Assembly (NCBI GenBank): GCA_040757675.1
Contig: JBFLWI010000002.1
Span: 55,217-119,216, forward strand
Reading direction: 5' to 3'
Origin: Thermoproteota archaeon
GTDB lineage: Archaea; Thermoproteota; Nitrososphaeria; Nitrososphaerales; Nitrosopumilaceae
DNA: 64,000 nt
Shown here: piece after piece, positions 12,660-17,960 of the stretch
Layout: every line of letters starts with the position of its first letter
How positions within the stretch are numbered: position 1 is the first letter of the stretch
Translations under genes and position numbers: made by a program
Notes under the pieces: model-generated
Told to the model about the DNA's origin: nothing
What the model saw: the letters and a program-made list of their open reading frames with translations, nothing else
Databases searched by the model: none

Positions 12660-15363
12660 TACAGTTTTAACCAAATTCTACTCGCTTGGTTTTACACAAC
12701 TAACAGAAATTCAAAAAAAAGCGATTCCCACTATAGTTCAAAAAAAAGACTGTCTGATTATAGCACCAACCGGATCAGGAAAGACAGAATGTTCCGTAAT
12801 ACCGGTCTTTTCATTTGTTGCAACTACAAAAAAGCCTGGCAAAATAAAAGCACTATACATTACACCACTGAGGGCTCTGAATCGTGATGTCTTCAAACGC
12901 ATCATCAAATACGCTGAATCGGAAAACCTCACAATAGAGATCCGACACGGAGACACCTCTCAATCAGCCAGAAAAAGAATCACGGCACTGCCTCCGGACA
13001 TTCTAATTACAACGCCAGAAACACTGGTGATTCTGCTGACTCAGCAAAAAATGCTTGAGGCTCTCTCTGAGCTGGAATGGGTCATAGTCGACGAAGTACA
13101 CGACCTGCTTTCCAATGAACGGGGCTCTCAGCTTTCTGTAAGCATCGAGCGATTGCAGCTCAACACAAAAAACCCGATAACTAGGATAGGACTTTCAGCC
13201 ACAGTAGGGAATCCAGATGATGCTGCAAAATTCCTTGTTGGAACAAAAAGAAAATACCAAGTCATACGTGACAACACCATTCGAAAATACGACGTAGAAG
13301 TCAGGCACGTAAACGGAACCATTCATGATGTAGCAGACGTAATAATTGACTGCCTTGTGAAATTGAAGTTGGACTCCCCAGTCCTGCTTTTCACAAATAC
13401 AAGGGGTGAGGCAGAGTTTCTGGCGTCCATATTGAGGGAAAAATCGCCAATTACAGTTGAGCTGCATCACGGCTCGCTCTCACAACAAGTGCGCGAGGAA
13501 ACAGAGGAAAACCTCAAGGCTGGAAGATCGAGGTTGGTTGTATGCACCTCGTCGCTTGAGCTTGGTCTTGACATCGGCTCAGTTGAACTCGTCATGCATT
13601 ATGGTTCACCACGCCAGGTCTCAAAATTCATGCAGAGAATAGGCAGAAGCAAGCACAACAAGCATTCTTCTGCAAAAGGCATTATAATCACAAATAGTGT
13701 AGACGACGAACTTGAGACAAAAGCAATCATGGAGAGAATTCAGGAAGGTTCGATAGAAGACCAAACCACACACACTGGATCACTAGATGTGCTGGCACAC
13801 CATCTGGTGGGACTCTCAATGCAGCTTGGCATCATACCAGTAAGCACCGCGCTTGAGATCTTTAGGAACTCGTATCTATTTAGAAACTTGACACTTGATG
13901 AGCTTAGCGGTGTACTTGAGCTGTTGGACTCTAACTATCTGATAACATTTGACAAAGAAAAAATGGTCTTCAAAAAGACTGCAAAATGTTACAGGTACTA
14001 CTTTGAAAACCTCTCTACAATACCAGACATTTTGAAATTCAAGGTATTTGACATCATAACAAAAAAGACAATCGGAAGCCTAGATCAGAGATTTGTTGGT
14101 GACTTTGGCGAGCCAGGAAACATCTTTGTTCTGAGGGGCTCACAATGGAAAATAGTAAACGTAGATGAATCTTCCTTGAAGGTAAATGTGGAACCTGTGC
14201 GCGCAGGCGGCATCACCGTGCCATATTGGGAGGGAGAAAACATACCTGTGGATCACAGAACTGCATCCAAAGTCGGCAAATTCAGAACAAAGATACGAAG
14301 CGGTCTTCTCACCCTACCTGATAATGTGATCACACAACTGAACCTGCCAGTCATACCGGACGATAGAACCATGGTAGTAGAATCGGTACGCGGGCAAGGC
14401 ATGATCGTAATTCATTCCTGTTTTGGAACAAAAATCAACGCAACTTTGGCAACGGTGCTATCCTCCATGCTTTCTTCAAAGACGGGATTCCAAGTGGACG
14501 CAAGGTCTGACGCATACAGAATTGCATTGTCCTCAAGGGGCCGTATACTCGAAGACCACGTAAGGCAGATACTTGCGGACACATATGATTTGGATCAATT
14601 GGTGACTGCTTCACTTGGTGGAACGCACAACGTAAGCTGGCGCACATGGAATGTTGCAAAGAAATTCGGAGTCGTCGGAAGAGGCGCAGTGTATGAGAAA
14701 AAATCCGCAAGATTTCTCTTTGAGCGGTATTCTGGCACACCACTAGTCAGGGAGGCCATGAGGGAGCTGTTCCACGACAAATACGATCTTGAAAATTCTG
14801 CCAAGGTGCTCCAAGACATATCTTCTAACAAAATTCAGATCCACTGGCTTGAGGAAAACAAATTCTCAAAGCTTGCAGAACCAATTTTGGATCACACCAC
14901 AAAATATTATTCGTCTCCCGCAAATATCGACAAAGGAATACTCGATCTAGTGAAAAGCCGTCTCTTTAAAACCAGCCACAGGCTGATCTGCGCAAGATGC
15001 GGCAAATGGGAAAAAGTGGTTCAAACAAGCGAGATAGAGAAAATGCCAAGCTGCCCTAAATGCAAGGCACACCAGATTGCAACCACCTTCTACTCTGATT
15101 ATGAGCTGACAAAAATCATACAAAAAAAAGTGGCCGGAAAGAAGATCTCAGCAGAAGAAAACCACAAATTTACACGTGCATGGAAGTCGGCCTCACTTTT
15201 GGCAAACTTTGGCAAGACTGCACTCATTGTTCTTTCTGGCTATGGAATAGGCGTAGATACTGCTTCGAGGATCCTTCGAAATATGGTTGACGAAGAGACC
15301 CTGTATAGGCAGATCTACGAGGCAGAAAGGCAGTATGTGACCACACGGGGATTTTGGGACTAG
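12616..15363 (+). CDS. lhr: Lhr-like SF2 helicase with C-terminal Zn finger
   Basis: APTGSGKT, TPLRALNRD, ITTPETL, VDEVH, LSAT, HHGSLS, TSSLELGLDIG, QRIGRS; CARC...CPKC near the C-terminus. Confidence 0.93.
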   Translation: MSAQSQEKIHNKQLDTVLTKFYSLGFTQLTEIQKKAIPTIVQKKDCLIIAPTGSGKTECSVIPVFSFVATTKKPGKIKALYITPLRALNRDVFKRIIKYAESENLTIEIRHGDTSQSARKRITALPPDILITTPETLVILLTQQKMLEALSELEWVIVDEVHDLLSNERGSQLSVSIERLQLNTKNPITRIGLSATVGNPDDAAKFLVGTKRKYQVIRDNTIRKYDVEVRHVNGTIHDVADVIIDCLVKLKLDSPVLLFTNTRGEAEFLASILREKSPITVELHHGSLSQQVREETEENLKAGRSRLVVCTSSLELGLDIGSVELVMHYGSPRQVSKFMQRIGRSKHNKHSSAKGIIITNSVDDELETKAIMERIQEGSIEDQTTHTGSLDVLAHHLVGLSMQLGIIPVSTALEIFRNSYLFRNLTLDELSGVLELLDSNYLITFDKEKMVFKKTAKCYRYYFENLSTIPDILKFKVFDIITKKTIGSLDQRFVGDFGEPGNIFVLRGSQWKIVNVDESSLKVNVEPVRAGGITVPYWEGENIPVDHRTASKVGKFRTKIRSGLLTLPDNVITQLNLPVIPDDRTMVVESVRGQGMIVIHSCFGTKINATLATVLSSMLSSKTGFQVDARSDAYRIALSSRGRILEDHVRQILADTYDLDQLVTASLGGTHNVSWRTWNVAKKFGVVGRGAVYEKKSARFLFERYSGTPLVREAMRELFHDKYDLENSAKVLQDISSNKIQIHWLEENKFSKLAEPILDHTTKYYSSPANIDKGILDLVKSRLFKTSHRLICARCGKWEKVVQTSEIEKMPSCPKCKAHQIATTFYSDYELTKIIQKKVAGKKISAEENHKFTRAWKSASLLANFGKTALIVLSGYGIGVDTASRILRNMVDEETLYRQIYEAERQYVTTRGFWD

Positions 15364-16757
15364 TTCTTCTTTCGTATGGTGGAATACGGCGTCAAAAACA
15401 GCTCGGTTCTTCCCTCAAGGCCTTGCCTTGCTACTACGCCGCTTACTGAAATGATTTCTCCAATTGAGCACTCGTCAAGCTGTCTTGCTTGATTCCTCCA
15501 CCCTTTGAGCCAAATCTGCGCCGTATCGTCTTCTACAAACATTTCAGAAAGTGAAACAGTCTCGCCTGTCTTTGTCTGTATGTTTTTTCTCTCCGGCGCT
15601 TTTAGGATGATAGCTTCAATGCAGTAATAGTTGTTGTCTGGTTTTATGTTTGCAATTTTTGTTCTAAGGTCTGCCAACACCGGTAGATCCTCGTCATCTA
15701 TTTTTCTAACAAAAGAATCGGCATCAATTGTGATGCTGTTTCCGTACAACTTTGATGGCATGCATTCTATAACATCGCCTTGGCCAAACGAGCTTGTGGC
15801 ATCTGCGGTATCTACAATGTTGTAAATCTGTTTTTCTTTGTTGACTCCTAGAAGCATCCTCTGCCCGTTTTCATTTTTTGTGCTGGATAGCACTCTGATT
15901 ATGACTGGTTCTACCTCCTTTTTTGCTTGAATCTCAAGAATGGTTGATTCGTTTCCGTGAATCTCAAGTTCCTGCTGGTTCATCTTTGTTTTCACACCGA
16001 CGAGTCGCGCTTTGGTTCCTGCAGGTATCATTTTTGGAATTTCTGAATCGTTTTTGTTCCACAGAACAACTCGCACGGATCTACCATCGCTGCCTTTGAG
16101 TCTGAACCGCAACGCAGTGCCGGGCGCGCCACGAAAGTTTGTAAACTCTGAAAAGTTAATGCCGCCGTCTATGATGCCTGAAACCACAATGTTGTTTTGA
16201 CCCTCTTTGATTTCTGATACGTCTTTTGTAAGAGAATCAATGGAAGGAATGTCGCTTTCTGTGCTTGCACGCTCGATTGTGGAGCCTGAGCCTATGTTGA
16301 TTGTGAGCTGACCGTTGAGGTCGGACTTGACGTAAGCTTTGATTATCTTGATGAGATCGCCTGGACTCAGATTTGTAATCTCAGGTAGATTCGCTTTCTC
16401 ATCCCAGAGCTTTACTGTGGCAGATGAATCATTATCATACACTGTCATGTTTCGCAAGAAAAACTGTGAGCCGTCCTTTCTTGAGAATTGTTTTTTTGGG
16501 GAGACGTTGAGGACTCTGGTCTGTAAGGTGACCTCTTTTGCGCCCGCATACAGATCCTTTATGCCGACCTCGCTTTTTGGCGGCTCTGAAATAGTTATGC
16601 CAAGATCAGACGCAACAAGAAATAATGCGCCCTGGTCTGTAAGGTAGCCGGCACCTATCTTTTCTTTCTTTTGGGCGATCAGCTTTTCTATGTCTTCTTT
16701 TGTGAGCTCCGGTTTTTGTTCAAGGAGTTTTGATAAAAGGGAATCAAATTCACTCAA
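15360..16757 (-). CDS. rpa: Replication protein A / multi-OB-fold ssDNA-binding protein
   Basis: Repeated OB signatures (FSRKDGS..., DNDSSATVKLWD, GRSVRVVLWN, EDDTAQIWLKGW); TTG start. Confidence 0.88.
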   Translation of the reverse strand: MSEFDSLLSKLLEQKPELTKEDIEKLIAQKKEKIGAGYLTDQGALFLVASDLGITISEPPKSEVGIKDLYAGAKEVTLQTRVLNVSPKKQFSRKDGSQFFLRNMTVYDNDSSATVKLWDEKANLPEITNLSPGDLIKIIKAYVKSDLNGQLTINIGSGSTIERASTESDIPSIDSLTKDVSEIKEGQNNIVVSGIIDGGINFSEFTNFRGAPGTALRFRLKGSDGRSVRVVLWNKNDSEIPKMIPAGTKARLVGVKTKMNQQELEIHGNESTILEIQAKKEVEPVIIRVLSSTKNENGQRMLLGVNKEKQIYNIVDTADATSSFGQGDVIECMPSKLYGNSITIDADSFVRKIDDEDLPVLADLRTKIANIKPDNNYYCIEAIILKAPERKNIQTKTGETVSLSEMFVEDDTAQIWLKGWRNQARQLDECSIGEIISVSGVVARQGLEGRTELFLTPYSTIRKKN

Positions 16758-16803
16758 GTTAGATTTTGATAAACAGGTGTACTAATAAAAATTTGTCATC
16801 ACC

Positions 16804-16983
16804 GGTTCTGCTAATTTGTCGAGATCTGATGCAAATGATAAATAGTTTTATTCATAAAAGGAGACTGATCACGTGTACGCAGTAAAATCAATCAGGCAGC
16901 CTTTCACACCAAACCCAGAATTTATCAGCATGATGGTCGCAGGATCTGTATGAGCAGGTCTCGATAAGTTGAACCGCAGAACC
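16804..16983. mobile_element. 180-bp inverted-repeat element (MITE-like or structured RNA) flanked by 8-bp direct repeats
   Basis: GGTTCTGC 16804-16811 / GCAGAACC 16976-16983 and AATTTGTCGAGATCTG 16813-16828 / CAGGTCTCGATAAGTT 16955-16970 are inverted repeats; flanks TCATCACC 16796-16803 and TCATCGCC 16984-16991 match at 7 of 8 positions. Confidence 0.6.
16873..16953 (+). CDS. Putative 26-aa peptide inside the inverted-repeat element
   Basis: GTG start, MYAVKSIRQPFTPNPEFISMMVAGSV, TGA; AAGGAG at 16858-16863, 9 nt upstream. Confidence 0.35.
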   Translation: MYAVKSIRQPFTPNPEFISMMVAGSV

Positions 16984-17000
16984 TCATCGCCTAAATTAGA

Positions 17001-17960
17001 GTGAAATTCAGACAAGCTGTGTCGAGTATAGTGGCTAGATCGCTTACCAAATCATACGGCGATCTGGTTGCAGTGGATGGAATAGACTTGGATGTAAAAG
17101 AAGGACATGTCTTTGGATTCTTGGGTCCAAATGGGGCAGGCAAATCGACTACGATAAAGCTTCTCACCACACTTATTCCACCAACAAGCGGCACGATGGA
17201 AATTCTTGGGATCAACGCGATCAAACATCCACTTGAAGTACGGAAGCGAATAGGTGTCGTTATACAGCAACCAAGTTACGAGCCAAACCTCTCGGTTGAA
17301 AAATCACTTGAAAAGTACGGCATGATGTGGAATATTGACAAAAAGACAAGAAAAGAACGAGCAGAAGAACTTATCAAGATCTTTGGTTTGCAAGAAATTA
17401 GAAAGCGCAAAAACGAGGACCTTTCAATAGGGCAGAGGAGGCGAGTCCAAGTAGCTCGTGAATTCATGCATGAAATGGAACTGTTGTTTTTAGACGAGCC
17501 TACCGTGGGGCTTGATCCGAGCGCACGCAGGGGGTTACTCGACTTTTTAAAAGGCAAGGCAAAGACCGGCCTTACCATATTTTATACCACGCACGTTCTT
17601 ACCGAGGCAGAATACCTGTGCGATCAAATTGCAGTGATCAACAAAGGCAAAATCCTGGCAGTGGACACACCGGAGCAGCTAAAAAACACATTTGGGCAAG
17701 AAAAAACGATCAAGATCCACCTTCTGTATAGACATGAAGGTTTAGCTCAACTACTTTCTGGCATATCCGACTGTACTGTCGATTTTAACACTGGAACCGA
17801 CATACTGATTCAGTCAAGAAATTCCGAACTAGTACTCTCAAAAATCTTGCAAATCCTCATTGAAAACAACATCGCAATTGAGGATTTGGTTGCCATGCCT
17901 ACTACACTCGAAGAAATATTTCTCAAAATGGTCAAGGATACAAATGCACCCCACAATTAG
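17001..17960 (+). CDS. ABC-2 type exporter ATP-binding subunit (DrrA/NodI-like)
   Basis: GPNGAGKST, LSIGQRRR signature, LFLDEPTVGLD, TTH; C-terminal DUF4162-like tail; the start could be a few codons downstream. Confidence 0.92.
   Translation: MKFRQAVSSIVARSLTKSYGDLVAVDGIDLDVKEGHVFGFLGPNGAGKSTTIKLLTTLIPPTSGTMEILGINAIKHPLEVRKRIGVVIQQPSYEPNLSVEKSLEKYGMMWNIDKKTRKERAEELIKIFGLQEIRKRKNEDLSIGQRRRVQVAREFMHEMELLFLDEPTVGLDPSARRGLLDFLKGKAKTGLTIFYTTHVLTEAEYLCDQIAVINKGKILAVDTPEQLKNTFGQEKTIKIHLLYRHEGLAQLLSGISDCTVDFNTGTDILIQSRNSELVLSKILQILIENNIAIEDLVAMPTTLEEIFLKMVKDTNAPHN

Follow-up and report, generated by a model that had tools for sequence, protein, structure and literature searches.

The window, the whole 64,000-nucleotide stretch of Nitrosopumilaceae DNA analysed here, contains the gene rpa (15360-16757, minus strand), whose product has OB-fold/RPA domains, and, divergent from it, an ABC exporter operon. 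The spacer between the two holds a 180-bp insertion, window 16804-16983, flanked by an 8-bp duplication, TCATCACC / TCATCGCC. The features of the spacer are as follows (TSD, target duplication; TIR, terminal inverted repeat).

16783-16794, minus strand: candidate rpa TATA-like box (TAATAAAAATTT on the plus strand), conserved in relatives and intact
16796-16803, no strand: left TSD copy, TCATCACC, the ancestral sequence, present as a single copy at sister empty sites
16804-16828, plus strand: left TIR, GGTTCTGCTAATTTGTCGAGATCTG, 23/25 identical to the TIR GGTTCTGCTAACTTGTCGAGACCTG of the elements L089, L098 and L104
16838-16845, plus strand: candidate TATA-like box of the tnpB promoter (ATAAATAG), about 31 nt before a GTG start
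16873-16953, plus strand: 26-codon remnant ORF, of which codons 1-21 (16873-16935) correspond to the TnpB N-terminus MYAVKSIRQPFTPNPEFISMM
16929-16939, plus strand: putative internal deletion junction AGCATGATGG, joining tnpB codon ~21 to the sequence after ...GGAAGCAAGTTGG
16936-16965, plus strand: right-end terminal hairpin remnant of the parent element (probable 3' stem of a guide-RNA scaffold), from its fold
16955-16983, minus strand: right TIR of 29 nt, reading GGTTCTGC, GGTTC, AACTTATCGAGACCTG on the complement, with 24/25 consensus positions kept
16984-16991, no strand: right TSD copy, TCATCGCC, with one A-to-G change, from the window read and empty-site comparison
16992-16999, plus strand: candidate ABC-exporter TATA-like box TAAATTAG, intact, 27 nt before the conserved start 17019

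At the empty sites of relatives, the target 8-mer lies between two conserved AT-rich boxes arranged back to back: TAATAAAAATTT, about 30 nt from the rpa start on the minus strand, and TAAATTAG, conserved in all empty-site relatives, both of them putative promoter boxes. Because the duplicated 8-mer lies between them and each box keeps its upstream neighbour sequence, both native core promoters survive. A mechanical list of ORFs starts the ABC ATPase at GTG 17001 (window 17001-17021); we place the real start at 17019, since relatives have an ATG there (in G008 and G025, at the position of the window GTG 17019) and divergent sequence before it. The ABC mRNA is probably leaderless, as this start follows the TATA-like box by 27 nt. 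Other mobile sequences lie at the same locus in two further genomes. In genome G009 (L016, contig C52, 1-714), a different internally deleted tnpB element, retaining TnpB residues 12-61 and 284-398 and ending in GGGTTTTGTGTAACTGACGGG, lies no more than about 3 bp from the insertion site of the window element and shares its orientation; the right junction of the G009 insertion is on another contig, C9, upstream of the ABC gene. In genome G031 (L024, contig C90, 2100-2429), an IS200/IS605 remnant (Y1_Tnp, 25.5 bits) lies upstream of the ABC gene, with a TnpB-like start (TYKFRLYPD...) on the other strand at the contig end.

We found that the rpa and ABC flanks (query region 16200-17600) are adjacent in nearly all of 41 same-genus genomes, and that the spacer is present without the 180-bp element in seven of them, with flank identities of 89-96% in G002, G020, G008 and G025 and of 78-82% in G035, G064 and G005. 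In G002, the flank identities are 96% and 94%, with a 6-base overlap of the two matches at the position of the element. The three empty sites nearest to the window variant (G020, G002 and G064) carry a single TCATCACC or TTATCACC. Specifically, the direct read is ...AAAAATTTGTCATCACCTAAATTACAGTG in G020, with the single 8-mer in the context ...TTTGTCATCACCTAAATT..., and ...TTTGTTATACC-type TTATCACCTAAATTAGAGTG at the same position in G002, where the 8-mer has the form TTATCACC; the order in the window is ...TTTG, TCATCACC, the 180 bp, TCATCGCC and TAAATTAGAGTG. Since the sisters without the 180 bp keep one 8-mer, the 180 bp is an insertion that duplicated TCATCACC. Judging from the empty sites, the right copy of the duplication is the one that changed, from A to G, after the insertion. 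A sequence search of 60 further genomes from the genus and order did not detect the element. Direct repeats resembling a target duplication had been pointed out in a sequence-only reading of the locus, which named an empty site with a single 8-mer as a check; the repeats are borne out, and such empty sites exist in the sister genomes.

The ends of the element form a perfect 8-nt inverted pair, GGTTCTGC (16804-16811) and GCAGAACC (16976-16983), followed by 16813-16828 against 16955-16970, with 13/16 Watson-Crick pairs and three G-T positions, so that direct alignment agrees with the 8-bp perfect plus 16-bp inverted repeat, with three G-U-compatible positions, of that earlier reading. A single T on the left (16812) is matched against GAACC on the right (16971-16975), which offsets the arms. 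Both differences of the left end from the IS6-transposase TIR GGTTCTGCTAACTTGTCGAGACCTG are C-to-T, and in the right end GGTTC (the GAACC at 16971-16975) replaces one consensus T, with a net gain of 4 nt. The end motif GGTTCTGC... has the GG tip at both ends and a cTGTt-like motif, as in the description of IS6 (PMC7986276). In the 64-kb window, the 20-nt family end GGTTCTGCTAAYTTRTCGAG is found once, as against 0.03 times expected from shuffles; this excess, together with the presence of the same end on transposase-bearing elements and the empty sister sites, indicates that the inverted ends are not due to chance.

A metagenome scan with GGTTCTGCTAAYTTRTCGAG gave 28 loci, in 11 of which the end adjoins a gene for a transposase of about 370 aa; none of the loci carries tnpB. 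The transposase matches Pfam DDE_Tnp_IS240 (52.7 bits, cut-off 27) and NCBIfam transpos_IS6 (125.6 bits, cut-off 125). It carries a zinc-binding region at the N-terminus and has 2734 relatives at E <= 1e-20, some of them labelled by NCBI as 'IS6 family transposase [Nitrosopumilus ureiphilus]'. Complete elements with such ends include the following.

L089: 100-4089, 3990 bp; 30-bp perfect ends; TSD AAATTTTA, perfect; cargo an EcoRI-like methylase and a GmrSD/HNH gene
L098: 64-3852, 3789 bp; same end type as L089; no TSD; a restriction-modification fusion
L086: 1292-2120, 829 bp; same end type as L089; TSD TAATTTCA, perfect; transposase-less, with an HNH-like ORF
L104 (N. ureiphilus CP026995.1): 2361 bp; 27-bp ends; TSD ACACAATG, perfect; IS6 transposase

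Thus, on alignment, the ends of the 180-bp element are those of IS6-transposase elements, and their match at 23/25 and 24/25 positions upholds an IS6 derivation, one of two origins proposed in the sequence-only reading. The fusion in L098 is a 768-aa methylase-specificity protein, and L089, L098 and L086 all carry defence-like cargo inside a single end pair. A second end subtype, GGTTCTGTCGGGTTATCAAGACCTG, is common to the transposase element L105/L108 and to L067, a 565-bp tnpB deletion derivative.

The interior of the 180-bp element is, by its alignments, the left end of a tnpB unit with its predicted promoter and first 21 codons, fused to the final ~45-50 nt of an element of that kind. In the own genome, the interior has two partial matches, 84% over 104 nt (contig C45) and 74% over 111 nt (contig C27), and the similarity of the three own-genome copies starts at GGTTCTG and takes in the block AAATGAYAAATARTTT, the start codon and about 20 codons. 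C45 encodes an intact TnpB of 417 aa (Cas12f1-like_TNB, 8e-23; OrfB_IS605, weakly; NCBIfam guided_TnpB, 146.5 bits), whose MFAIKSIKQPLTPNPELVSMM aligns with the remnant ORF, whereas C27 holds a 103-aa tnpB stump; a copy on C21 is 75% identical with one in-frame TAG, and C83 holds tnpB fragments. The remnant ORF is the sole ORF of the 180-bp element; past codon 21 it consists of right-end sequence out of context, and the 26-aa peptide has no Pfam match of its own. The geometry of archaeal promoters points to ATAAATAG as the TATA box of tnpB. To the right of the junction, 16925-16991 aligned locally with the L063 3' end at 80% identity over 41 nt, and the conserved ...GGAAGCAAGTTGG stands at the 3' end of full-length elements. 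The junction AGCATGATGG resembles the conserved ...AGCAAGTTGG before the right end of full-length copies, suggesting that the deletion took place between short similar sequences, the likely microhomology being AGCAtGaTGG / AGCAaGtTGG.

Relatives of the C45 TnpB are present in Nitrosotenuis, Nitrosotalea, Nitrosopumilus and Nitrososphaera assemblies, a distribution that assigns the window to Nitrosopumilaceae and probably to Nitrosotenuis. The full-length elements are 1.3-1.4 kb, with tnpB only and IS6-type ends. For example, the C21 element, which is found with identical flanks as L057, is 1294 bp long; its 25-bp inverted repeat is GGTTCTGCTAACTTGTCGAGGGATG, with 24/25 positions matching. Five full-length elements (1275-1442 bp) have an 8-bp duplication just outside the inverted ends, perfect in four.

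L058: TSD ATTTAAAC, perfect
L064: TSD GACGTGAA, perfect
L065: TSD AAGAATAA, perfect
L066: TSD AACTATAG, perfect
L061: TSD TATAGATC / TATGGATC, 7/8

Around C21/L057, C45, L056 and L062, no clear TSD was found. From these ends and duplications we infer an IS6-type mode of transposition for the tnpB-only units of the C45 TnpB clade. Neither tblastn over about 60 loci nor two neighbourhood look-ups revealed tnpB and transposase in one element, so that mobilisation in trans is deduced from the shared ends and TSDs. In the literature searched, no paper connects tnpB with IS6 for Nitrosopumilaceae.

A conserved fold, which overlaps the 3' end of tnpB and includes some compensatory pairs, is common to the last 240 nt of ten full-length elements. 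Each of them also has a terminal hairpin, formed between the 6 nt that follow a conserved GCAA and the 6 nt that precede the final AGAACC, the latter being positions 7-12 of the element end. On an alignment of right ends cut by a fixed GCAA / AGAACC rule (L056, L057, L058, L061-L064, L066 and, from the own genome, C45, L041 1519-1573), 80% of the hairpin cells were paired, as against 68% in shuffles (0/500 reaching 80%); four of the six pairs showed changes on both sides, and the covariation score was 0.474, compared with at most 0.133 for slid partners. This right-end stem is probably guide RNA, and its covariation suggests that the guide-RNA scaffold may end in a stem built from the IS6-type end.

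In addition, T followed by G or A stands directly 5' of the left TSD in 6/6 tnpB elements, namely that of the window (16793-16795), L058, L061, L064, L065 and L066 (TTG, GTA, CTA, TTG, TTA and CTA), and in 1/3 elements without tnpB; the chance expectation at the base composition of the window is about 0.15 per element. The count is small and confirmatory in kind. The motif is one-sided, with no mirror motif to the right of the duplication. The rpa-ABC spacer contains different family members in two species, both oriented alike, in keeping with some site preference, and it looks like an insertion hot spot. We tentatively consider, as a possibility that we hold to be doubtful, an integrated partnership in which tnpB and its guide RNA are adapted to the IS6-type ends. 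The guide would come from the duplicated 8-mer and the right flank, the T-R sequence would be the recognition motif of the nuclease, and TnpB, by cutting empty alleles, would drive homing or retention. The accepted role of TnpB is to restore an excised transposon. IS6 elements copy themselves, by replicative (cointegrate) transposition, and leave no empty donor site, so that this role is not obviously applicable here and a homing role would differ from excision-site repair. If the partnership exists, TnpB could drive the retention or homing of transposase-less IS6-type elements.

Taken as a whole, the 180 bp at 16804-16983 are very probably a non-autonomous, internally deleted and decayed IS6-type transposon of a Nitrosopumilaceae lineage with a tnpB passenger. 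An IS6-family DDE transposase supplied in trans would have bound the inverted ends, of about 25 bp, of a tnpB-only (or already shortened) element and joined them to target DNA in the spacer that separates the divergent promoters of rpa and the ABC exporter. The cut there would have been staggered by 8 bp, and its repair would have duplicated TCATCACC. About 1.1 kb of tnpB would have been lost between AGCAtGaTGG and AGCAaGtTGG, before or after the insertion, and later point changes would have given two C-to-T changes in the left end, the replacement of T by GGTTC in the right end and the A-to-G change in the right duplication. The IS6-type transposase gene is present in same-ended elements elsewhere, and its action in trans on the 180-bp element is presumed. 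No match to DDE_Tnp_IS240 (PF13610) was found in the own assembly, which is 99.7% complete but, as a 115-contig draft, may leave repeated IS copies unassembled. The sole match to a Y1 (IS200-type) transposase in the assembly (C79:67-354, L049) has an in-frame TAG, so the own genome seems to have no intact enzyme that could mobilise tnpB elements of one kind or the other. The lack of an IS6 transposase in the assembly, the damaged ends and the single copy lead us to regard this copy as an immobile relic, most likely without a function of its own.

The element was proposed in the sequence-only reading to be a non-autonomous IS6-derived MITE, or else a long RNA hairpin kept by selection on the RNA. 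The former is right as to the IS6 ends, the 8-bp TSD and the empty sites, and the element resembles MITEs in its small size, inverted ends, TSD and lack of a transposase gene. However, multiple copies with variable 8-bp flanks, another check named in that reading, were not seen: the own genome has one copy, the 60 relatives have none, and the same interior was present at 0/28 of the metagenome loci. There is thus no amplified family of near-identical short copies, and the multicopy MITE label fails.

That the element is a long RNA hairpin or 5' leader kept to regulate the ABC exporter operon, with the 26-codon ORF as a leader peptide, we regard as very improbable. The 180-bp region does fold better than shuffles on the plus strand (z = -3.06, as against 0.08 on the minus strand), all three arm mismatches are G-U compatible on that strand, and the element lies directly upstream of the operon in the same orientation. 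However, the inverted ends plus three transitions are sufficient to explain the fold; a count of 3/3 G-U-compatible mismatches is a one-in-eight outcome for transitions, and two of the three are C-to-T changes away from the family consensus. Mismatch types were counted in seven end pairs; outside the window, 4 were G-U compatible on the plus strand, 5 on the minus strand and 7 were transversions; the family thus shows no strand bias, and RNA-level selection on the arms was rejected. Moreover, the orthologous spacer lacks the element in every examined same-genus genome with the same gene pair, and a transcript from the predicted promoter would lack one arm, since this promoter is internal to the element and downstream of the left arm. 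An Rfam scan of the window region and two full-length elements revealed nothing beyond a chance RybB match (E = 0.66) in the rpa coding sequence; a structured cis-regulatory RNA was therefore rejected on its absence from orthologous spacers, the unbiased mismatches and the lack of an Rfam match, and a leader peptide or small protein on the alignment of the 26-aa ORF, a truncated TnpB N-terminus, and its lack of a Pfam match. The same mismatch pattern, orthologous absence and Rfam result tell against the long RNA hairpin of the earlier reading, whose suggestion of a domesticated regulatory element finds nothing in the analysis to support it; the promoter- and RBS-like sequence that it described is indeed present, but its identity as the 5' end of tnpB had been missed.

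A second alternative, which we consider unlikely, is that the relic is neutral as a transposon and has been co-opted as an extra outward promoter, the tnpB TATA box driving read-through into the ABC genes. The tnpB promoter block is well conserved in the relic and, as predicted, faces the ABC operon, to which it could add read-through transcription; a different tnpB element occupies the same spacer in the same orientation in G009, and IS6 elements are known to change the expression of neighbouring genes (PMC7986276). However, the operon retains its native TATA box and start and so needs no further promoter, the ends and TSD decay as neutral DNA would, and the element occurs in one species only. 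Still less credible, and to be set aside almost entirely, is the reading as an IS200/IS605-family PATE (palindrome-associated element) that Y1 TnpA would move via single-stranded DNA. Its attraction is that the interior derives from tnpB, the hallmark passenger of IS200/IS605, that one Y1_Tnp fragment exists in the own genome, and that core deletions making short tnpB relics are documented in haloarchaea (PMC3119063). IS200/IS605 elements, however, are without terminal inverted repeats or target duplication (PMC13565253), whereas both inverted ends and an 8-bp TSD are present in the 180-bp element, though it carries tnpB sequence, and in five full-length relatives; the ends of the 180-bp element match those of IS6-transposase elements. 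The IS200/IS605 family is further marked by subterminal hairpins and by insertion on the 3' side of a fixed target of 4-5 nt.

As a decayed IS6-type transposon, the element can be compared with several known systems. The IS6 family is marked by 8-bp direct repeats, GG tips and a cTGTt motif, and its review lists only two MITEs and one passenger-carrying member and assigns long transposase forms mainly to Clostridia (PMC7986276). IS6/IS26, IS257 and IS6100 share with the 180-bp element the GG and TCTG(T/C) ends and the 8-bp TSD, the transposase of its autonomous relatives matches DDE_Tnp_IS240 / transpos_IS6, and short transposase-less derivatives exist in both. In contrast, the autonomous relatives here are archaeal, with a transposase of about 370 aa and an N-terminal zinc-finger region; the relatives carry cargo (restriction-modification, HNH, tnpB) inside a single end pair; the ends are about 25-30 bp rather than 14-20 bp; and, unlike the IS6/IS26 MITEs, the 180-bp copy is single and damaged. 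tnpB is usually carried by IS200/IS605 and IS607 elements, which lack both inverted ends and duplications (PMC13565253). The IS1341-type IS200/IS605 elements and the Haloquadratum PATEs resemble the elements here in the tnpB-only unit of about 1.3 kb and, for the PATEs, in an internal deletion between short repeats that leaves termini only (PMC3119063), but have subterminal palindromes and no inverted ends or target duplication. The text of Altae-Tran et al. 2023 reports TnpB within the ends of DDE transposons (DDE-1 to DDE-6), where, as here, tnpB lies within symmetrical inverted ends, near the right end, and solo tnpB units have the same ends as transposase-bearing elements (PMC10691335). 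The partners named in that text are IS630, ISL2 and IS1031, whereas here the presumed partner is IS6, which the text, supplementary tables aside, does not mention, although an IS6-linked branch may be among those it covers (PMC10691335).

The 180-bp element is thus very probably an ordinary transposon relic, and its annotation as regulatory RNA, leader peptide or small gene should be avoided. For ammonia-oxidising archaea, the analysis points to tnpB-only units inside IS6-family ends, with 8-bp duplications, the ends being common to cargo transposons with restriction-modification and HNH genes. The covariation between the right-end stem and the transposon end, together with the one-sided T-R motif, would make a role of TnpB in a copy-in transposon directly testable.
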